Part shown: positions 3,091-37,778 of the stretch, in pieces
Layout: each line of letters begins with the position of its first letter
How positions within the stretch are numbered: the first letter of the stretch is position 1
NCBI GenBank assembly: GCA_026986575.1
Contig: JALSOH010000004.1
Location: forward strand, 128,001-192,000
Length of the DNA stretch: 64,000 nt
Direction: 5' to 3'
Source of the DNA: Thermoproteota archaeon
GTDB taxonomy: Archaea; Korarchaeota; Korarchaeia; Korarchaeales; Korarchaeaceae
The notes under the pieces: model-generated
The model's database searches: none
What the model saw: the letters and a program-made list of their open reading frames with translations, nothing else
What the model was told of the DNA's origin: nothing
Translations under genes and position numbers: made by a program

Positions 3091-4156
3091 GCTAGCCAAG
3101 GAGATTGCCGAGAGGATAAAGCAGGGAGAGTTCCCCGAGATAGAATATCCCCCGAACAGTCAGAAGAACATACTGTTCGATGAGGACATAGGCTACATAT
3201 TCAGCCCCAAGACCTACAGTAAGATAAGAGGTTCTAGAGTGAAGAGTCTCAAGACTCTGGCTGGCGTCCTGTACGGACTGAGCAGGGCGCTAGATCACCT
3301 AGAGAACGGACTTACCATGACAAAAAGGGATTTCTACTATGTGCATAAAGTGGAGAGGCTCAAGGGAACTCTCTTTCCCGAGGATCAGAGGGAAACTGAT
3401 GCCAGAATAGTGCTTATGGAACTCATACTCGGAATGCCTAGGGAGGCCTTTTCCATAACAAGCGATCCCAGGGGATGGATCTACGGAGATATAGAGCTCA
3501 TTGACAGATCAGGAAGAATCCTGAGAGCCGATCAGGTGGGAGAGATGGGGTATTCCGTACCACCGAGGCCTGAGAACATAAAGTTCAAGAGGATTGGTGT
3601 CAAGGCAGTCGTCGCCATAGAGAAGGTGGGTCCTGCCAAGAACATGATCGAGTTAGGTATCCCCGAGGAGAGAAAGATCGCCATCGCGATTTTACAGGGA
3701 CAGGCTTCTAGGAGCATGAGGAGATTCCTGAGGATGCTATCTGATGAAGGGGTCCCAATTGCTATACTCACGGACTTGTCCCCTTGGTCCCTCAGGATAG
3801 CGGCCACCGTGATATACAACAGCATAAATTCCGCCCACATACCTTATCTAGCGTCTCCTGAGGCTAGATTCATTGGCATACTCACGAAGGATGTAGAGGT
3901 GGGGTTCTTCAGGGATTATCAGTTCGCCCTCGAACCCCTCACTCCCGCGGATCTCAAGGCCGCTCAGGACAATCAGTTCCTTCCCAACCTCCAGAACGAG
4001 TTCTGGCAGAGGGAGAATAGGTGGTTCTTGGAGAAAAAGAAGAAGGCAGAGATAGAGATATTTAAGGCCATGAGTCCCACTGCCAAGAAGCTGAAGGAAC
4101 TATTCGTCGAGTACTTGAGGGAGAAGCTGGATGAACACTTGGGAATAAGTATCTGA
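3047..4156 (+). CDS. top6A: DNA topoisomerase VI subunit A
   Basis: RDFYY catalytic Tyr, IEK and KAEIE motifs; follows top6B; Toprim DxD reads DLS. Confidence 0.9.
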   Translation: MMRMEEMEVKKRALELAKEIAERIKQGEFPEIEYPPNSQKNILFDEDIGYIFSPKTYSKIRGSRVKSLKTLAGVLYGLSRALDHLENGLTMTKRDFYYVHKVERLKGTLFPEDQRETDARIVLMELILGMPREAFSITSDPRGWIYGDIELIDRSGRILRADQVGEMGYSVPPRPENIKFKRIGVKAVVAIEKVGPAKNMIELGIPEERKIAIAILQGQASRSMRRFLRMLSDEGVPIAILTDLSPWSLRIAATVIYNSINSAHIPYLASPEARFIGILTKDVEVGFFRDYQFALEPLTPADLKAAQDNQFLPNLQNEFWQRENRWFLEKKKKAEIEIFKAMSPTAKKLKELFVEYLREKLDEHLGISI

Positions 4157-21470: not shown

Positions 21471-21773
21471 TTGAAGATATATGGGATTGAAAGAGAGGTA
21501 TTTGCACTTTCTCTCGCAATCCTGTTAATACTGCCGTTAGTAGCCAGTATACCAAACTCCATGGGTGTCTGGATAGGGACCTATGTAAGAACGTGGTCTG
21601 TGAAGCGTGCTCACAGGATGGCTAGCTGGGCGCTTGATCAGATTACCGATCCCATCGGATGGGCAATAGGACACCATACTTGGTACACACGCCTCGCATC
21701 TATCGCACTCATAGCTTATACTGGCATTGGACCTTATTACGCGGCATTCACGATAGGATTCACTGTAGGGTGA
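21471..21773 (+). CDS. putative circular-bacteriocin-like precursor 1 (100 aa)
   Basis: GGTGA SD and TTG start; hydrophobic leader, W/A/G-rich amphipathic core ending FTIGFTVG; first gene of a SpoIIM/Yip1/ABC operon. Confidence 0.6.
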   Translation: MKIYGIEREVFALSLAILLILPLVASIPNSMGVWIGTYVRTWSVKRAHRMASWALDQITDPIGWAIGHHTWYTRLASIALIAYTGIGPYYAAFTIGFTVG

Positions 21774-22312
21774 CAGAAATTATTAGAACATCCTGTTTAC
21801 CCGAGTTTTTTATTCTAATCATTTATCTATCATCGTTTGTTGTAGGTACATGGCACACCTTTAACGAAAATGGCGCTCGGGATGGATCCTTCCATCTGAA
21901 GGATGTTAAAAATATTAATATAGATTACCTCGATTTCTTCAGGATGGTATTGTTAAATAATTTAGTGGCAGGTATCTTAATCATTGTGGGAGGATGGTTG
22001 TTCTGCATACCGACTCTCTTAGTCCCCATAGCTTCGGGTTACTTTGCTGGGCTTTACTTTGGAGCTGCTTACAGAGCTTATGGACTCTTCATTTCCTTAA
22101 TTTTGTACATTCCCATGCCCTTGGAGATAGCCGCCATAGTTATCCTAGGTCATGTATCCTTCAAGCTATGTAAGGAGAATCTCAGGAGATTAAGGGGAAA
22201 CGACTCGGATGCTCCTTTGCTCAGAGGCCATATTAAATCTATCACATACGGTATTTTCCTCATAGTTGTAGGTGCTGTGATCGAGACAGTTATTCAATTC
22301 TACATCGGTTAA
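21770..22312 (+). CDS. SpoIIM/DUF95 family membrane protein
   Basis: LNNL..G..I..GG....PT, PLEIAA, C-terminal GAVIET; GTG overlaps the precursor stop codon. Confidence 0.8.
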   Translation: MTEIIRTSCLPEFFILIIYLSSFVVGTWHTFNENGARDGSFHLKDVKNINIDYLDFFRMVLLNNLVAGILIIVGGWLFCIPTLLVPIASGYFAGLYFGAAYRAYGLFISLILYIPMPLEIAAIVILGHVSFKLCKENLRRLRGNDSDAPLLRGHIKSITYGIFLIVVGAVIETVIQFYIG

Positions 22313-22342
22313 ATTCATGAATGAGATCGCCGAGGGAGATTT

Positions 22343-22936
22343 ATGAGGCTATTCTTTTCCTTCATGCTAGTGCTTCTCACGGGAATCATGGTACACCTTT
22401 ACTTCACTATGCCGTTCTTAAAGCCTAGTACCTCCACATACGCCGAAATGGATGTCCGCATTATAAGGGGATCTTTCCTACTCACTCCGGTATTTTCCAG
22501 CCTCATAGTCGTCCTGATATGGGCTGTGGAATCTTCTTTAGCCTCGCTCGTCATCAGAAGATCGGTGAGAGGGGCGGAAAGGTCCCACATAAATTTAGGC
22601 GTCATAATGAGCGAATTTTCCTTGGGATACGTTCCTGAATTTATCTTCCTCCTCATAATAGTCCCGCTCGTATGGTTCAACCTCCCTGAATACACAGTGA
22701 CCTCTGTGAAGGAGCTTATTAACGCATCTAAGAGCCTAGGAGAGTCTCCATTATACGTAAACGGGATGCTCGCTCTGATTGCTGTATCCATATCTCGCTA
22801 TCCCATATACGCAGCCATACTCAGATACAGATTGGATATAGGATGGAGGGAGACCCTCACTATCATCGCCCTGCTTATCATTGTTGATACACTCATAGCT
22901 TTGTGGGGAGGAGGGTTCGACTTAGGTAGGGGGTGA
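22343..22936 (+). CDS. Yip1-like multi-pass membrane protein
   Basis: About 5 TM helices; W.V.S...LV, LGYVP, LRYRLDIGW pattern resembles Yip1. Confidence 0.55.
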   Translation: MRLFFSFMLVLLTGIMVHLYFTMPFLKPSTSTYAEMDVRIIRGSFLLTPVFSSLIVVLIWAVESSLASLVIRRSVRGAERSHINLGVIMSEFSLGYVPEFIFLLIIVPLVWFNLPEYTVTSVKELINASKSLGESPLYVNGMLALIAVSISRYPIYAAILRYRLDIGWRETLTIIALLIIVDTLIALWGGGFDLGRG

Positions 22937-22943
22937 GTTAGGC

Positions 22944-23591
22944 ATGAGAACTGAAGATAACCTCATCTTAGAGGTTAAAAGGATAAGTAAAAGGCTCGGG
23001 AAGAGACAGGTGTTAGCAGATGTGAGCTTCGACGTGAGGAATGGAGAGGTAGTCCTCATAAGGGGGCCCAATGGGTCGGGAAAGACGACGCTTCTAAGAA
23101 CCATTGCTGGGGTGTTTAGACCAGATTCCGGTCGAGTACTCCTATTGGGAAGGGATATTCACGAGGATATGGGTGTGAGGAGAGAAATCAGCTACTGTCC
23201 TGAGAGGCTAGGCCTTCTTGGGGATTACACAATCGAGGATAACATGATGTTCTTTACCAAAGTGTTCGGGAGATCGTTCGACGAGCACAGATTTAGAGAC
23301 TACGTGAAAGGGTTTCGGCTCGAGGGATACTCGGATGACAAGATATCCAAGCTCTCGGCTGGGACTAGGAAGAAGGTGGCTATCATCAGGACTCTCGTCT
23401 TCCCGGCTAGGCTGTACCTGCTTGACGAACCACTAGCTAACCTAGACGAGGAGAGCGTGAGCTTTTTAATTGAGGAAATTAGGAGAATGGCCGATCTAGG
23501 ATCTTCCTTCCTGATATCTTCTCACATAGAGTTCCCGGCTGCTGATCGTGAATTAGAGATGAGAGGTGGGGGACTTGTCGAGGTTAGGTGA
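22944..23591 (+). CDS. ABC exporter ATP-binding protein
   Basis: GPNGSGKTT, LSAG signature, LLDEP, SSH. Confidence 0.95.
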   Translation: MRTEDNLILEVKRISKRLGKRQVLADVSFDVRNGEVVLIRGPNGSGKTTLLRTIAGVFRPDSGRVLLLGRDIHEDMGVRREISYCPERLGLLGDYTIEDNMMFFTKVFGRSFDEHRFRDYVKGFRLEGYSDDKISKLSAGTRKKVAIIRTLVFPARLYLLDEPLANLDEESVSFLIEEIRRMADLGSSFLISSHIEFPAADRELEMRGGGLVEVR

Positions 23592-24309
23592 CCTAATAGC
23601 GGGTCACCTCTACCTAATGGGTGGATTGACCAATGTCAGGGAGATCTTCGTGTTCTTGAGCCCACAGATCCTGTTTTTGGCACTAGCTGAGGTCATAGCA
23701 GGATCCAGGACGTATACAGAATTATTGATGGTTACTTCGTTGCTTGAGAGTTTTTCCTTAGTCATTACGTATATTCTCCTTGGTATCGTGGTGCCGGGGA
23801 GGCTAATCAGATTAAGCTACTCGATGAGAGATGCCGGAATGATGGAGATATTCCTGAATCAGGGGGTTGGATTGGATCAGGTATTGCTGTCTCTCTGGAT
23901 CGGTTCGTCCCTAAAATACTCCTTATACGTGATTGCAGGAAGCCTGATAGCCCTGCTCTCTTTATACCTAGCTGGATGGATGACAGTAGTCGAATTCCTA
24001 ACGGCATTGGGCGTGATCGCCGTCATGGTCACACTCTTCTCGGCAATTTGCATTACCCTATCTCTTATCCTTCCTCCCAGTGAAGCTCAATACTGGTCTC
24101 AATTAGTCTTTTTCCTGATCTTCGGATATTTATACTTAGGTTTCCTCAATCCCCGGAATTACAATGATATCGTGAGGCTCTTCTTGGGCGGATACTTAAA
24201 CCCCATGTCGCTGGGTGGAGGGGCCATAGCAACCTTTCTCGTAATAGTTTTACTGATAGGATTATCTGAGGAGAGGGGGGATATTATTGAAATTGATGAG
24301 GTTAAATAA
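23566..24309 (+). CDS. ABC-2-type permease
   Basis: About 6 TM; RDAGMMEIFL motif equivalent to the ABC-2 E..G..E.L motif. Confidence 0.7.
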   Translation: MGDLSRLGDLIAGHLYLMGGLTNVREIFVFLSPQILFLALAEVIAGSRTYTELLMVTSLLESFSLVITYILLGIVVPGRLIRLSYSMRDAGMMEIFLNQGVGLDQVLLSLWIGSSLKYSLYVIAGSLIALLSLYLAGWMTVVEFLTALGVIAVMVTLFSAICITLSLILPPSEAQYWSQLVFFLIFGYLYLGFLNPRNYNDIVRLFLGGYLNPMSLGGGAIATFLVIVLLIGLSEERGDIIEIDEVK

Positions 24310-24973
24310 TCTAAATGCCCAAATCACCTTGGAATTGACTTTGCTTGTAAGGGGTAGGGGAAAGAGGATCGGGTGGTTAATTAGGGTACTCGTGGTCTCC
24401 ATGGCTGTGCTGTCGCTGGGTCTGCTAAGCTCACTGGAGTTGGGTAATCTCAAAAACATTTACCTATCACTCCCGGGTGTATGGCTCCTGTCTTCGGCCT
24501 TGATGATGGATAATACGGTCGAGATAAAGAATAGCGGTCTTGCTGAGATTTTGCTCCAGACATATGGGCCTTCATATTTGGGTGTGAGGTATCTCCTATA
24601 TACTGTGGTAACGATACTCCTATCAATATCCTTTATTTTGCTGGGAGGCTCTGTAGTTTCACTGATGGTTGGGATAGGATTATCGGGTTTGGATGCCATT
24701 TCCTTGCTATCTCTCTCCGTCATAGGTTCAACGGCTTTAATGACCGTTACAGTCTTATTATCGGTGAAAATTGGTGGCCTGAGGTTATTAGACACCTTTT
24801 CCCTAGCAAGTGGCGGACTTACCCTCCTCCTGATCATTTCCATGCCTTCTATATTGGAGGCGCTTAATCAAGAGTTGTTTGTTTGTATGTTGCTCGCTGG
24901 GACATTCTCCATAGCTGTTCTGACTATAGTGTACCTTAAGAGGCATGACTTTCCGGCATTATTAACAATCTAG
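24287..24973 (+). CDS. ABC-2-type permease
   Basis: About 6 TM; EIKNSGLAEILL motif. Confidence 0.7.
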   Translation: MKLMRLNNLNAQITLELTLLVRGRGKRIGWLIRVLVVSMAVLSLGLLSSLELGNLKNIYLSLPGVWLLSSALMMDNTVEIKNSGLAEILLQTYGPSYLGVRYLLYTVVTILLSISFILLGGSVVSLMVGIGLSGLDAISLLSLSVIGSTALMTVTVLLSVKIGGLRLLDTFSLASGGLTLLLIISMPSILEALNQELFVCMLLAGTFSIAVLTIVYLKRHDFPALLTI

Positions 24974-27950: not shown

Positions 27951-28466
27951 TTACCCTTCAGCTGAACTCTCTCCGCTTTCTTCACCGCTCCTCTTCTCCT
28001 TCCAAGGTTCTCTTAGTTCTCCTGGCTCTGAGAGCTTATCACCGTACTTGTAGAACAATATGTAGATGAAATAGCTCCCTGCCACTAAGAAGGCAAAGTC
28101 ACGAAGCTCTTTGCCGGGAATTAAGTCTGAGCTAATCCCCAGTCTGATGAGCGTATACGGATAAAGCACTACCATCATAACGTAGAAGGTTATCAGAGAG
28201 AAGAAGACGTATATGAGAGCATATCTCGTTCTCCTTACTTCCAGCATGTAGTAGTCGATCGCACCGATCAGCCCGAAGCTGGTAATTACTATGAGCACTC
28301 CTTCTATAAAAGGTAGATACCTGTTATTCTTACTGGCAACCGGAAAGTATGTAATGAAATGATAGATTAGCATGGCAAAAAGCATAAATATAGTAAATAA
28401 TATCCTCTCTTTGGATGATTTATTTGAACCTCCTACATCTTGAGGCCTTAAGGTACGCATTGACAT
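27951..28466 (-). CDS. four-TM membrane protein, putative immunity protein
   Basis: Four hydrophobic segments; overlaps the 3' end of the Cys-rich precursor gene. Confidence 0.5.
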   Translation of the reverse strand: MSMRTLRPQDVGGSNKSSKERILFTIFMLFAMLIYHFITYFPVASKNNRYLPFIEGVLIVITSFGLIGAIDYYMLEVRRTRYALIYVFFSLITFYVMMVVLYPYTLIRLGISSDLIPGKELRDFAFLVAGSYFIYILFYKYGDKLSEPGELREPWKEKRSGEESGESSAEG

Positions 28467-29245
28467 ACCGTACCTACCTCGCTACAACATCCGCCATACA
28501 GGGTAAATACTAAGCAAAAGGGACACCAGACTATCAAGCATTCCCAGAATGCCGGAACATTTCTACAGCTAGCGCAGCAATTGAGAAGACATGAGATATT
28601 CCATCTACAGCAGTACGCGGAGCAACTGCAGTAGTCCCCACATGAATCATATCCTGGATATGCTGTGCAATTATGAGCGCAACTGCTCAAATTTATATAT
28701 GAACCATTGATGATTCTAGCATCAATTGATATATAGTCTTTATGAGAGCTGAGAATCAACGCTATACTTCTAATTTCATTGACTAATTTAGTGCCCTTCA
28801 TATAAATTAAATACTTTCTTTCCTTAAGTGGGATTAGAAGCAGTACTGCTGTGACTATATCTCCATCGACCGAAAATCTAATGAGCGAGCCTTTAGGTTG
28901 AGATGCCTTAAGATCATTTACATTAAGTGCGCCCCTCTCTATAAGAGAAATCACATCATTTGATTTTAAAGCCTCTGTAACGAAATTTTTGAGCTCTGCT
29001 CCCTCCAGTTTCATGTGATCCAATTCAACAAAATAGGGTTCATTTCTTAATCCTTTGTTCGCCTTTATTTTGAGATCTCCTGTACAAGTAATTGATACTA
29101 TGCTGAGAAGAGATGCCTTTAATGCTTCTTTAATAAACCTCCTTCTGCTCAAATTAATTCTCCATAGGCGCATGAGCGTAATAGACATTCCTGAAATATA
29201 AATTCTACGTTCTATTCCTATGCATTCTTTCCTTGAGAATCTCAC
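28448..29245 (-). CDS. Tat-exported halocin-C8-like precursor with 18-Cys C-terminal domain
   Basis: LSRRRFIK twin-arginine motif plus h-region; ~77-aa C-terminus with 18 Cys; real start likely ATG 29188. Confidence 0.6.
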   Translation of the reverse strand: MRFSRKECIGIERRIYISGMSITLMRLWRINLSRRRFIKEALKASLLSIVSITCTGDLKIKANKGLRNEPYFVELDHMKLEGAELKNFVTEALKSNDVISLIERGALNVNDLKASQPKGSLIRFSVDGDIVTAVLLLIPLKERKYLIYMKGTKLVNEIRSIALILSSHKDYISIDARIINGSYINLSSCAHNCTAYPGYDSCGDYCSCSAYCCRWNISCLLNCCASCRNVPAFWECLIVWCPFCLVFTLYGGCCSEVGTVCQCVP

Positions 29246-29945: not shown

Positions 29946-30312
29946 GATAAGGGAGAGGTATAGGGTCTACGCGATCATACTCTTCGGCTCACGGGCCAGG
30001 GGAGACTGGCTCCCTCACAGTGATTACGATCTTCTCGTCGTGGCCGAATTCAAAGAGCCCTTCCTAGACAGGATCTACGAGCTCTCCGGATTGGCTAAGG
30101 GCCCTGTGGAATTCCATCCCTACACCCTCTACGAGGTGAGGGAATTACTGAGGAGGGGCGTTCCATCGATCGTTGATGCCCTCGAGGAGGGCATCGTCCT
30201 CTACGAGGGGGAGGAGTTCAGGGAGGTGAGGGAGCTTTTCGAGGAGATGAAGAGGAAGGGGCTCAGGAGGAGCGGTGTATCGATCATATTGCCCGGAGGT
30301 GATCAGCCGTAG
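29920..30312 (+). CDS. minimal nucleotidyltransferase (MNT)
   Basis: LFGSRARGD....SDYDLLVV. Confidence 0.92.
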   Translation: MDLRKLVNRIRERYRVYAIILFGSRARGDWLPHSDYDLLVVAEFKEPFLDRIYELSGLAKGPVEFHPYTLYEVRELLRRGVPSIVDALEEGIVLYEGEEFREVRELFEEMKRKGLRRSGVSIILPGGDQP

Positions 30313-31284
30313 GTCTCTTCCACGCCCCCACCCAGCCGGGGATCTGGTGTTCCCGAGTTTTATCGACCCTTCACCCTTCAATACGCTTCTAACGTCGGAT
30401 ATGAAGATCTGAGGTGTGTTGCAAGATCCCAAGCATCCGCAGTAGCTGTAGTAGGGACATGGATCCCTTTTCGTGTGGGTCATCATGTAGCTGACGAACA
30501 TGATACCTCCCAGATCCCTCAGCTCCAGCCCGCACGTCCCGTTAACTAGCGTGTTGGCGGAGCCGCACGACCCCCCGCAGTTCGCTGCTGGTTCACTGCC
30601 CGATAGGGTGATCAGCGCTACGCCCTCACCCATGCCCAAGAACCTCGCTCTGAAGATCATGTGAACGTCGCATGCCGTGCGAGGTGGTTTCTGTCTCGTG
30701 CACCCACTCGCCCTGCCATGTTCGTAGTAAAACCACCAGACATTCCCCTCGGGGTGCATGAGCCCGTGATATATCTCGTTGCACCTCCACATACCATCTC
30801 CGTAACCCTCTGATGGTCCGCTCAGCCTCCTCCACCCCTTCTCCTCCCTAATCCAGAGATCCGCGACCCCTCTCAGGGGGTCCAGTAGGGTGGGCGGTAA
30901 GTCGGCGAAGATCCTAGAAGGCACGCTGCTAAGGGCTAGCTCTGATGCCAGCATCTCGATATAGTGGATGTCGTGACTCCCGTTGAGGGACCATATTATA
31001 ACGAACGGGAGGGTCCTGTTGATTCGCTCGGCGTAATCGAGCAGCTTCCTTATCTCTAACCTGTTAAACCTGAGTGGAGGGACGACGAGGGCGAGAGAAC
31101 CTAGCCTCCTCCCGTATCTCTCGAATACCTCCTTCTCCTTGGCGTAATATTCAACGTCAGGGAGGGATTTGAGGAACATCTCCTTCACGGAATTCCCCCT
31201 AGGAGCTAAGCTTAAGACAAGTCCGCCGATGAGTAGGATAAGGAATAGAGAATTAAGAGCCCTCCTATCGACCGTGGGATCCAT
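30145..31284 (-). CDS. secreted or membrane-anchored Cys-rich hypothetical protein
   Basis: RR plus hydrophobic N-terminus; ~10 Cys in the C-terminal half; last ~55 codons overlap MNT antisense. Confidence 0.55.
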   Translation of the reverse strand: MDPTVDRRALNSLFLILLIGGLVLSLAPRGNSVKEMFLKSLPDVEYYAKEKEVFERYGRRLGSLALVVPPLRFNRLEIRKLLDYAERINRTLPFVIIWSLNGSHDIHYIEMLASELALSSVPSRIFADLPPTLLDPLRGVADLWIREEKGWRRLSGPSEGYGDGMWRCNEIYHGLMHPEGNVWWFYYEHGRASGCTRQKPPRTACDVHMIFRARFLGMGEGVALITLSGSEPAANCGGSCGSANTLVNGTCGLELRDLGGIMFVSYMMTHTKRDPCPYYSYCGCLGSCNTPQIFISDVRSVLKGEGSIKLGNTRSPAGWGRGRDLRLITSGQYDRYTAPPEPLPLHLLEKLPHLPELLPLVEDDALLEGINDRWNAPPQ

Positions 31285-31376
31285 GCATCCTTTCCTATGT
31301 CGTACCGGGTGCAATGTTATAAGATCTGATGCGCTGCCCTCGAGTCAGTTTTTAATTTCGAGGGGAGCAATAAATT

Positions 31377-32369: not shown

Positions 32370-33441
32370 GTGCACATGGTAAGCGAGAAAGTACGGAGTC
32401 AGAAAGTTACTCCTAGGGGAAGACGCATCCCTCATGACCTCAGAATGGAACTCTACTTTTTAGTTAGAGAGCCCCGCGATAGAGGGATGAGTTATCGTGA
32501 GATTCAGAGAATTGTGGAAAGGGAGCGCGGTATCAAAATAAGCAGGTCTCACATATCCTACTGGATTCACGGCCTTCATACCCCGCTAAACGAGCCCTAC
32601 AATCATGTCGATACTTCCAAGAAGGGTGAGCTGGCTTGGATAGCAGGGATGTTCGTAGGGGATGGTTCCGTGAAGATCAACAGGAAGGGTCGCTTCTTGG
32701 TGCTGAAAGTTAAGGATAGGGAGCTAGCGGAGGCTGCCGCTAATAAACTGGCAGTTGTTCTGGGAAAGGGAGAGAGGTACGCGGTAAACAGGATGGGGGA
32801 CGGTAGGTACTACGTACAGGTCCAGTCGAGGGAACTAGTCGACCACTTGAGAGCGTGGGAGAACATTCTCTCGCATCTAGAGAGAAGCCCTAGAGAGTTC
32901 ATTCAGGCACTCTTCGATTGTGAGGGCGGACCTATAGGACACGTTAGTGCATCTGGCAGGTTCTTCGCCAGAATAGATGTAGGTAATACCAATAGAGAGT
33001 TGCTCGAGGATGTATCCCTGAAGCTCTCTGACATGGGGATTCCAATCAACCGTTTCGATGCATTATCCCAAGGGAAAGGTTTTCGTAACTAGGAAGGGGA
33101 GATCCGTGGCTAGAAGAGACTGTTACTTCTTAAGGATATATCGGCAGGGGGGCATCATTAGGTACCGGGATGAGGTTGGATTTGTCACTTCAAGGAAGCA
33201 GGAGAAGCTAGAGGACATAGTTTACATCCTCTCTAATCTCGGATCTGGACGGGAAGCTGCCGTGGAGTGGATTAGGAGATACGAATACAAGAGAGGGATG
33301 GGCCGCCAGAGGTGGTTCAGGAGGGAGAGGTTCCTTGAATGGGAGGATGCTGTTAAGGAGTATGAGAGGTTCTTAGCCAGGAGATCGGCGATTAATCGTT
33401 ATTATAGGTCACAGCATTCCCCTCTTTCTGCAGGCCTCTAG
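32370..33441 (+). pseudogene. free-standing HTH + double LAGLIDADG endonuclease, frameshifted near 33044
   Basis: GMSYREI HTH, AWIAGMFVGDG and FIQALFDCEG motifs; removing one A joins the two ORFs. Confidence 0.8.
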
Positions 33442-35694: not shown

Positions 35695-36294
35695 TTAGGG
35701 ATAGAGTGCGTGATTTTTTAATAACTGCTGGGCAGCAATCTTCGGATAATATATTCTCAGCACTATGTCCGTCAAAAGAAGCATGAGTATCATTGCTACG
35801 TCGTCCACCCTCTTCATCCCATATCTATGATTGAAAACACGATAGAAGTAGATGAAGGATAGAGTCGAGAAGGAAGTATCGATTAGCGCCTTGATTGATG
35901 AGTATAGCTCGATACTAGATGCTCCTATAATGGGAAGAAGCACTAGATCCGTTACTAGTGATATAGACGAAAAGAGGAAGTAAAAGGATACAACACTCAG
36001 TATTGGGGAGAGCGGACCCTTATACACGCTTCTATAAAACAAGAAGAGGTAAGTTAGTGCTCCCAGCAGGCCCCAAAGTAGGGCTCCGGTGAAGCTGCTT
36101 CCTAACAATACAAAATATGCGATAACATATGGGGGAATGGATTGATTGGCTACACCCAGCTCGTTCAAGACGATCATTAGGTACAAGGATTGAGTACCCG
36201 TGTAGAGCAAGTATAGGAGAAGGGGCCTTCTCCTATTGGATGGAGGGCTATTGTTAAGCAGATCCGGATTTTCTTCTCTTCTACATATGGCCAT
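35695..36294 (-). CDS. Yip1-like multi-pass membrane protein
   Basis: About 5 TM; W.L.G.L.YL, Y..F...YGM pattern; last gene of cluster 2. Confidence 0.5.
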   Translation of the reverse strand: MAICRREENPDLLNNSPPSNRRRPLLLYLLYTGTQSLYLMIVLNELGVANQSIPPYVIAYFVLLGSSFTGALLWGLLGALTYLFLFYRSVYKGPLSPILSVVSFYFLFSSISLVTDLVLLPIIGASSIELYSSIKALIDTSFSTLSFIYFYRVFNHRYGMKRVDDVAMILMLLLTDIVLRIYYPKIAAQQLLKNHALYP

Positions 36295-36841
36295 TTAACT
36301 TCACCAAGATGCAAGGTATTGAGAGATAATATTCTATAACTGATGATAATATTATCATAATTAAACTTAATAACGCCAATTTTGTTAAATAAACTAACTG
36401 ATCTCTGGAGAGGTCATAGTGATCCCCGCCATGGATGACCGTTACGGCGCTCGAAAGACCTACGGATGAGGAGATGAGGATAGAAGTGATCTCCAGCGGC
36501 CCGTGGAATAGAAAGCAGGGGAGTGCACCTGTCAAGTTTTCTCTGAGAATTTCCCTGACGATGCTACCTACCACCATGCCGTTGAAGCTAAGGGAGAGAG
36601 CCGTGAGCGTTCCAAGTGTCACATATCCTATGGAAAGAATCAGGATAACGGAACTGTTCAAGAGTATAAGTCCGCGTAAATCATAATGTCCATTAAAGGA
36701 ATGAGGAACGAAAACTCCACCTAACCCTTCTGTGTAAGATTGATCTGGGATCAGGAAACTTCCTAAGATCCCGGCCGCATAGAAAAGCGATGCTAAGATC
36801 AGTCCCTCACCCACCCTTGGGCCTTGTTTCGTCCCTACCAT
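36281..36841 (-). CDS. SpoIIM/DUF95 family membrane protein
   Basis: LNS.V.L, FNGMVVG, FHGPLEI, SSVIEYY signatures. Confidence 0.88.
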   Translation of the reverse strand: MVGTKQGPRVGEGLILASLFYAAGILGSFLIPDQSYTEGLGGVFVPHSFNGHYDLRGLILLNSSVILILSIGYVTLGTLTALSLSFNGMVVGSIVREILRENLTGALPCFLFHGPLEITSILISSSVGLSSAVTVIHGGDHYDLSRDQLVYLTKLALLSLIMIILSSVIEYYLSIPCILVKLNGHM

Positions 36842-37778
36842 GGCTCATCCTCCTGATGATCTCTATTCTCTTCTCCAAGCTAGGATGCGTTGGAAGTAGG
36901 GAGGGGGTTTCCTTCATTCCATATATTTTGATCAGAGCGTTTATCAGATCCTCTGGATTTGAGTAAGATGCTGCAATGAGATCGGCCTTGACCTCCCTCC
37001 TCCTTATCAGGATTAAGAAGACCGACAACGCTGCCAAGAAGCCAGCCACCACTAGCAGGAAGATTACGGGATCGCGTTTCGTTACTGCCCCCGTTAGGGA
37101 GGAGGGTACTTCGCCTACAAGGAGTAGCATCGCGTACATCAGTAGTGTGTAGCCCAGATACCTGGCGATGTCTCCTTCTTTATAATGGGCGAGTTCGTGG
37201 GCCAGTACGCTCTTGATCTCTCCATTAGACAGCACCTTAAGCAGATCCTCATTTATGAAGACAGTCGGTTGAACGATCCCGCCAAGAAGCGCGGTTTTCA
37301 TTAGAGAGGATCTGAATAATCGGAGCCTTATATTCTTCCTGATCTCCATCTTTCCCTTAAGATCCTCGAAAACCCTCTTCAGATCGTCCGGGGGGTCTCT
37401 CCCCTGACCAATCTTATCGAAGATTATAGGAACCAGATTAACTGTGACGAACAGTACTACGAGAAGAGTGGAGAATTCCACTAGGATGCTGTGGTTGGGA
37501 AGTGAGGAGATCACAGCAGCGTAGATGAAGATCAAATATAAATCGAAATAATTGAGCAGGAGATCCTTGAATAATCTCCTGGCTCCCGGGCTTTCCTTAC
37601 GAAGAATGGGGTCTACAAGGGAGAGAATTATAGCAGCTAGTATCAAGATGAAAAATCCTGTGATAAGGGGGTTAAGCCTGTACTCCACCACGAGGATTAC
37701 GGTAAGAGACATCATAGCTACTGTTATGAGAGCCATCACTAAATTGTAAAGAGAAAAAAATGGAGAGTTAGTTCCCAA
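36807..37778 (-). CDS. M48 family membrane zinc metallopeptidase
   Basis: HELAH, REVKAD, THPSLEKRI; four N-terminal TM helices. Confidence 0.92.
   Translation of the reverse strand: MGTNSPFFSLYNLVMALITVAMMSLTVILVVEYRLNPLITGFFILILAAIILSLVDPILRKESPGARRLFKDLLLNYFDLYLIFIYAAVISSLPNHSILVEFSTLLVVLFVTVNLVPIIFDKIGQGRDPPDDLKRVFEDLKGKMEIRKNIRLRLFRSSLMKTALLGGIVQPTVFINEDLLKVLSNGEIKSVLAHELAHYKEGDIARYLGYTLLMYAMLLLVGEVPSSLTGAVTKRDPVIFLLVVAGFLAALSVFLILIRRREVKADLIAASYSNPEDLINALIKIYGMKETPSLLPTHPSLEKRIEIIRRMSHGRDETRPKGG

Follow-up and report, generated by a model that had tools for sequence, protein, structure and literature searches.

A candidate polymorphic, disulfide-rich archaeocin with a putative membrane immunity protein in Korarchaeota and other archaea

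Molecular detail of antagonism among archaea is available mainly for the halocins and the sulfolobicins, and halocin C8, which has 10 cysteines (Cys), is the archaeal peptide with which the locus described here is compared. Bacterial polymorphic toxins, such as the CdiA-CT/CdiI, Rhs-CT/RhsI, and colicin/pyocin systems, combine a conserved N-terminal part with a C-terminal domain that varies after a conserved motif, and a small cognate gene lies downstream that diverges together with this domain and is also found as displaced or orphan copies. In class II bacteriocins, as in other secreted antimicrobial peptides rich in disulfides, a hydrophobic, disulfide-stabilized effector is accompanied by an adjacent multi-pass immunity gene, and orphan immunity genes occur. 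In a 2026 preprint and a 2012 review, the halocin C8 precursor ProC8 is described as a protein of 283 amino acids (aa) exported by twin-arginine translocation (Tat), the C-terminal 76 residues of which are the halocin (bioRxiv 10.64898/2026.07.27.741052; PMC3387779), with immunity provided by the precursor's own N-terminal part, HalI (PMC3387779). Here, we describe two overlapping genes on the minus strand, at positions 27951 to 29245 in the open reading frame (ORF) listing of a 64,000-nucleotide (nt) stretch of the Korarchaeaceae assembly GCA_026986575.1 (contig JALSOH010000004.1; this entire stretch is called the window). The upstream gene encodes a protein with a twin-arginine leader and a Cys-rich tail (the Cys protein), and the downstream gene encodes a small membrane protein (the partner). 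Because of the pairing pattern of the Cys residues, the match between leader type and host, the presence of a partner gene at 16 of 16 loci, and the co-divergence of the two genes with displaced and orphan partners, we read them, with moderate confidence, as a polymorphic, secreted, disulfide-rich candidate archaeocin and its cognate immunity protein, a toxin/immunity cassette of the polymorphic-toxin type.

The locus has something in common with each of these systems. Like ProC8 of Natrinema, the proteins are of archaeal origin and patchy distribution and consist of a Tat leader, an N-terminal or middle domain of about 130 to 200 aa, and a C-terminal domain of some 76 aa that is hydrophobic, rich in Cys, and even in its Cys count. 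That count is 14 to 20 rather than 10, however, and whereas HalI is contained in the halocin precursor, a separate membrane-protein gene always lies downstream here. As in the bacterial polymorphic toxins, a conserved N-terminal part gives way to a variable domain after a conserved motif (S-I-N-G), and a small cognate gene follows that co-diverges and has displaced and orphan copies. In contrast to those toxins, the Cys protein is far smaller (about 200 aa when mature), has a Tat or general secretory (Sec) leader instead of using type V or type VI secretion or lysis, carries a predicted disulfide knot where they have nuclease, deaminase, or pore-forming domains from known families, and has a polytopic membrane protein as its partner. 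The hydrophobic effector, presumably stabilized by disulfides, and the adjacent multi-pass candidate immunity gene, with its orphan copies, also recall class II bacteriocins, but the cassette has neither a double-glycine leader nor a dedicated ATP-binding cassette (ABC) exporter, includes a large folded middle domain, and belongs to archaeal hyperthermophiles.

A profile search of 1.84 billion representative proteins returned 11 matches to the Cys protein, and scans of genomes and metagenomes added more. For comparison, 22 members were used, 18 in one alignment (A6; some near-duplicates) and four hold-outs, all with both the middle domain and the Cys-rich domain. On the evidence of these profiles, the Cys protein founds an unnamed family of 22 members, and the source records are labeled hypothetical or uncharacterized (for example, in Thermococcus sibiricus and Candidatus Korarchaeota archaeon). 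Members occur in korarchaeote-type genomes, Thermococci, and Archaeoglobaceae, and named records also include Candidatus Methanodesulfokora. Members were present in 2 of the 21 genomes searched in the genus, in 4 of 36 in the family, and in 5 of 18 in a second family (f11, represented by complete genomes of roughly 2 Mb), while the remaining 347 archaeal genomes searched gave one weak match; no relative was present in the viral collection searched. An incomplete literature search found no description of the family, and an earlier one is possible. In two genera of the family, a gene of about 250 aa (L034:684-1457 and L014:6212-6952) adjoins the cassette or its remnant in differing orientations; by eye only, it resembles a protein of the geranylgeranylglyceryl-phosphate-synthase type.

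The Cys-rich domain is the most unusual part of the protein. Using the numbering of the 265-aa ORF, 18 of 20 Cys lie at residues 189 to 263, inside the last 77 residues, and include CC pairs at 212-213, 223-224, and 253-254. Cys makes up 23% of this tail, compared to 1.0% of the open frames of at least 150 aa in the window, and no other 79-aa segment across the 64 kb approaches this content. All 18 are retained in a 52%-identical relative from a congeneric genome, which argues that the feature is real and under selection rather than a product of chance. Across alignment A6, 9 Cys columns are invariant and 3 nearly so. The domain contains 14, 16, 18, or 20 Cys, an even number in all 18 aligned members and all 4 hold-outs (22/22). 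The variable columns also pair by identical presence and absence, with no pair of columns showing a one-mismatch pattern. The pairs that covary in this manner are C206-C263, C219-C253, and C223-C244, and further covarying pairs sit in insertions absent from the window protein. Even counts and pairwise gain and loss argue for disulfides rather than metal ligands. The three covarying pairs are probably disulfide partners, and the best reading of the window tail, from the alignment, is a domain of nine disulfides in 77 residues.

The leader provides a second line of evidence. The Tat consensus is S/T-R-R-x-F-L-K followed by an uncharged h-region, and the window protein has SRRRFIK at S33 to K39, followed by 13 uncharged residues (ASLLSIVSITCTG), though the Pfam TAT_signal model was not among the matches in a Pfam scan of this protein. 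Contig 6 of the host genome encodes TatC (168 bits) and TatA (74 bits). Of 10 members with the window type of leader, 9 retain RRxF[ILM] at overall identities of 22 to 37%, and the tenth has SRGRF. Members from Thermococci and Archaeoglobaceae have short, positively charged leaders of the Sec type. Leaders with RRxF were found where TatC is present. TatC was not found in any of the four complete genomes holding Sec-leader members, and was found in G047. Leader type tracking the host machinery in this way argues that the twin-arginine motif is functional. A lipoprotein was considered and rejected, as the Cys of "SITC" is replaced by Trp in a 94%-identical relative.

In six members (L014:4713-5597, L024:303-1181, L005:1492-2442, P0007, P0011, and P0014), 60 to 140 extra N-terminal residues precede RRxF. 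In some, this extra part forms two hydrophobic helices and frequently includes CxxC or another Cys motif, and in P0011 and P0014 it is soluble and contains GCxxC. Where a twin-arginine motif sits internally, behind two membrane helices, the protein may be inserted by a mixture of Sec and Tat or may carry a thiol-redox module of its own. Fusion to a DCC-type oxidoreductase at the N terminus of P0011 and P0014 was rejected, since nothing beyond the GCxxC motif was present and no Pfam match was obtained.

A Tat leader, a Cys-rich domain, and a hydrophobic C-terminal segment could also describe an exported metal or Fe-S redox protein, with the Cys as cofactor ligands and the hydrophobic helix as a tail anchor. 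Tail-anchored subunits occur in some Tat-dependent hydrogenases and formate dehydrogenases, and in an organism of this anaerobic type extracellular disulfides would be less expected. Matches to Fe-S or metal-binding families were looked for by sequence, and neither Pfam and NCBIfam (E values up to 10) nor the sequences in PDB yielded any. Invariant Cys columns number only 9, and the conservation of a complete ligand set, combined with cofactor insertion in the cytoplasm, is not what the family displays: Cys counts are always even, the variable Cys come and go in exact pairs, and Sec-type leaders occur in all four of the complete TatC-negative genomes. Sec exports chains unfolded, and Sec-type leaders in genomes where TatC was not found mean that cytoplasmic cofactor insertion is not required. 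A redox protein is therefore very improbable.

Of the four hydrophobic segments of the window partner (residues 22 to 40, 52 to 70, 83 to 101, and 121 to 139), three are strong and one is weaker. At all 16 distinct loci with downstream sequence, the Cys-protein gene is directly followed by a gene for a small membrane protein, which starts between −41 and +30 nt relative to the Cys-protein stop codon, while the remaining flanking genes are not conserved between loci. The encoded proteins are 77 to 171 aa long and mostly have four hydrophobic segments, with 1 or 2 predicted in two short ones (L024 and L045). Partners diverge far more than the Cys proteins do, falling into three small BLASTP groups (window, G011, G007, and G005; L012 and L013; L015 and L017) plus singletons, and an Atlas search with the window partner returned just unnamed small bacterial membrane proteins.

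Comparing the closest pairs of loci reveals where this divergence begins. Identity over the N-terminal plus middle part, the Cys domain, and the partner was 88%, 39%, and 23% for L015 versus L010, 78%, 69%, and 36% for L015 versus L017, and 59%, 36%, and 24% for L014 versus L024. The first pair is 90 to 97% identical in DNA as far as the border of the Cys domain and cannot be aligned over the Cys domain. Three hallmarks of polymorphic toxins were thus found in the family: a conserved N-terminal part joined to a variable C-terminal domain, a small cognate downstream gene that co-varies with this domain, and orphan or displaced partner genes (G011, L010, and L018). In L010, the locus's own partner gene (3155-3529) is followed by a frameshifted partner gene of the L015 type (3542-4044; 93% DNA identity), and an independent metagenome contig, L018, has the same arrangement. 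As far as these alignments go, the L010 arrangement is a displacement of a "C-terminal domain plus immunity" cassette, as is typical of polymorphic toxin loci. In the congeneric genome G011, the partner gene is intact (72% identity; ratio of nonsynonymous to synonymous substitution rates [dN/dS], 0.125), and just the last 12 or so codons of the Cys-protein gene are left, beside an unrelated gene. In G007, an intact partner gene accompanies a Cys-protein gene that lacks the leader and most of the middle domain, and a full-length relative, P0006, exists elsewhere. On the Thermococci contig L010, the Cys-protein gene is directly preceded by two more genes that encode small proteins with several membrane passes (L010:1376-2244; 178 and 111 aa) and that could be additional orphan partner genes.

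An earlier inspection of this DNA, made from the nucleotide sequence and its translations (the sequence-only reading), had proposed most of these elements. The ORF with its twin-arginine leader, middle domain, and 18-Cys tail is real, as is the membrane-protein gene overlapping its 3' end. The Tat-type leader is borne out by the fit of the motif, the presence of TatA and TatC in the genome, and the agreement of leader type with TatC across the family. A disulfide-locked tail agrees with the even, exactly paired Cys, and an immunity-like role for the neighbor has gained from its constant position, its co-divergence with the Cys domain, and the orphan and displaced copies.

The conserved portion of the family is the middle domain, which lies between the leader and the Cys domain, spans about 125 residues, and passes from helices into an antiparallel beta-sheet. 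Its signature is PLKDGK..YYEFSKPV..VK....S-I-N-G, in which the (S)-I-N-G at the end is nearly invariant. AlphaFold2 run with 18 sequences predicted a single compact unit (pLDDT, 86.8; pTM, 0.82), while a run with 3 sequences was unusable (pLDDT, 39). In the model, helices are followed by a five- to six-stranded antiparallel sheet and then by the Cys domain, comprising a strand, three short helices, and a strand, with the hydrophobic helix-Pro-helix FWECLIVWCPFCLVFTLY in it. The best hit of a VIA wide fold search had a Z score of 5.2, under the noise level of the tool, and BFVD, a collection of predicted viral structures, contained no match to the model. A complex prediction for the mature protein and the partner scored 0.00 in a run without controls, and carries no weight either way.

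Several observations weigh against a toxin and its immunity protein. Scans of both proteins with Pfam and NCBIfam (E values up to 10), PADLOC, and PHROGs returned nothing meaningful, including no known toxin, bacteriocin, or immunity family; a profile search of PDB sequences gave chance rows only; and Foldseek found no match to the model in PDB at E values up to 0.001. No processing protease or dedicated exporter was conserved nearby among the loci compared. The partners of different clades may not be homologous, judging by their BLASTP groups. The displaced L010 partner is frameshifted and not evidently kept by selection, and the divergence of the G011 orphan may mostly predate the loss of its toxin gene, so that little weight can be placed on its low dN/dS. 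In the genus, the C-terminal tail of the partner (KYGDKLxEPGExREPWKEK) is charged and strongly conserved; it is probably cytoplasmic, simple immunity does not need it, and it hints at another role. Systems for self/non-self recognition can also give the same polymorphism.

Such points would suit a non-antagonistic exported surface protein that docks on or signals via its membrane partner, for example as an anchor, a receptor, an adhesion factor, or part of self-recognition. Strict pairing at all 16 distinct loci, the conserved tail, and the lack of likeness to known toxins would all be natural for such a protein, and in the model, a single compact unit, no peptide stands out as obviously releasable. 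However, an obligate complex leaves unexplained why a lone intact partner persists after loss of the Cys-protein gene. Nor does it explain the sharp drop in identity at the border of the Cys domain, the co-divergence of the partner, or the displaced old partner. The patchy distribution also counts against a surface protein, and we consider this alternative rather unlikely.

The sequence-only reading had likened the Cys protein to the halocin C8 precursor, and membership in that family did not survive profile searches. TIGR04449 (halocin_C8_dom) had no match in the window protein at E values up to 10 and none in 18 family members at E values up to 1. A six-frame search of the window's own genome with the same model yielded no candidates, while among 401 other archaeal genomes searched around this lineage 5 were positive, as was a Haloferax volcanii control. 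PF22862 (HalC8_like_N) likewise had no match in the window protein at E values up to 10 or in 10 relatives at E values up to 1. Seven TIGR04449-positive proteins of non-halophiles also lack a PF22862 match, indicating that the PF22862 model is narrow. The TIGR04449-positive genomes (G176, G286, G307, G328, and G350; loci L027 to L033; searched genomes of 1.0 to 2.1 Mb, as in non-halophiles) include two, G176 and G328, with two matches each, and in G328 a halocin C8-type gene coexists with a member of the present family.

The protein may still be a very remote member of the halocin C8 superfamily, its middle domain homologous to the HalI-like N-domain and its Cys-rich toxin domain replaced or radically diverged. 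TIGR04449-positive proteins of non-halophiles have the same order of parts, and genes for small membrane-spanning proteins lie downstream at four of their loci (L028, L029, L032, and L033). A comparison of full-length profiles by hhalign gave a probability of 2% in one setting, and 55% (E value, 1.2e-4; 215 collinear columns) in a second run, a score inflated by leader peptides and composition. Comparing middle domains alone gave a score of 20.1 (P = 0.0074), above all 30 column-shuffled controls by a small margin (maximum, 17.8), but Cys domains compared with each other scored 10.9, at the noise level (shuffled maximum, 19.1), and their Cys patterns are unrelated. In a protein-language-model Atlas search, a "Halocin C8" cluster came up at rank 4 with a score of 0.79, which serves as a lead only. 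The family resembles halocin C8 in architecture, not in sequence, as judged by these profiles; common descent of the middle domain with the halocin C8 type is possible, and true membership in that superfamily is doubtful.

If the two genes do form a toxin/immunity cassette, the precursor would fold and oxidize in the cytoplasm into one compact unit, in which the beta-sheet middle domain would cradle the hydrophobic C-terminal domain locked by nine disulfides. TatA and TatC would export the folded protein. Outside, the Cys-rich domain would act on competing archaea, either still attached or after a cut near the S-I-N-G border, with the membrane or envelope of competitors as the most likely target. 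The middle domain would keep the effector soluble or target it, and the co-translated four-segment membrane protein would protect the producer. Toxicity, target, cleavage, and the mode of immunity are what we infer for this cassette.

Coordinates of the features are collected in Table 1. The ORF of the Cys protein extends to the first GTG, and the genome's own gene call (P0016) starts at the ATG and begins MRLWRINLSRRRFIK, while the start of an NCBI relative that is 94% identical (P0003) corresponds to the TTG (MSRRRFIK). The overlap of the two genes, which shrinks to 13 nt if the partner starts at its second ATG (P0004), fits a single operon with translational coupling. Given the usual spacing, TTTATATT may be the archaeal promoter of a transcript that is leaderless or nearly so.

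Table 1. Positions of the cassette and its parts in the window
Feature	Positions	Strand	Description
Precursor gene	28448..29173	-	241 aa; alternative starts TTG 29152 (234 aa) and GTG 29245 (265 aa)
TATA-like TTTATATT	29195..29202	-	Center about 26 nt upstream of ATG 29173; by eye
Twin-arginine signal peptide	29060..29173	-	MRLWRINL, S-R-R-R-F-I-K, h-region ASLLSIVSITCTG, DLKIKA; putative cleavage site
Middle domain	28682..29059	-	Residues 63-188 of the 265-aa ORF
Cys-rich C-terminal domain	28451..28681	-	Residues 189-265; 18 Cys; helix-Pro-helix FWECLIVWCPFCLVFTLY
Partner gene	27951..28466	-	171 (or 169) aa; 4 hydrophobic segments; candidate cognate immunity protein
Gene overlap	28448..28466	-	19 nt

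The window is archaeal and contains a 16S-23S ribosomal RNA (rRNA) operon (64 to 65% G+C) and RNase P RNA, between which the cassette lies at a low G+C content of 42 to 47%. Its neighbors are a VapBC pair and a HEPN/MNT toxin-antitoxin pair; the proposal in the sequence-only reading that it forms a third antagonism module of an island was not upheld, as those neighbors are toxin-antitoxin pairs. A link between the cassette and the ABC transporter genes at 22944 to 24973 was rejected, as these lie 3 kb away on the other strand and are not conserved at other loci.

Other features of the surrounding DNA are listed here for future use. Between the HEPN/MNT pair and RNase P RNA, an ORF of 389 aa (30145 to 31314, minus strand; 333 aa past the part shared with the MNT gene) encodes a hydrophobic segment near its N terminus and several Cys clusters and matches no Pfam family. 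Of 36 genomes of the family, 11 carry homologs of this ORF; its own genome holds additional copies, and stop codons break several of the copies. Two clusters include SpoIIM-like membrane proteins (21659 to 24973 and 35695 to 37778), one together with an ABC ATPase and two unnamed ORFs and the other with an M48 peptidase, and both lie in low-G+C stretches (42 to 48%) on either side of the region of the rRNA operon, RNase P, and tRNA-Met. An ORF for a LAGLIDADG endonuclease is at 32370 to 33092.

More broadly, the cassette may represent the first archaeocin family of hyperthermophiles outside the Sulfolobales: a knot of 7 to 10 disulfides in 75 to 89 residues, exported by Tat or Sec as a polymorphic toxin and exchanged, along with a membrane immunity gene, among Korarchaeota, Thermococci, and Archaeoglobi, with a middle domain that is an ancient sister of the halocin C8 superfamily. 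We put this forward tentatively, as a possibility that we doubt more than we believe. If the ancient-sister relationship were true, halocin-type warfare would not be a haloarchaeal specialty but would extend across the archaea. The protein is also a natural case of one secreted domain that leaves via Tat in some hosts and via Sec in others, and if the toxin/immunity reading holds, it would offer an extremely disulfide-dense, presumably very thermostable antimicrobial scaffold. Hosts of the family include uncultured Korarchaeota as well as cultivable organisms such as T. sibiricus, where the protein is uncharacterized, and if this is indeed a toxin/immunity family, interference competition at high temperature would be opened to experiment.

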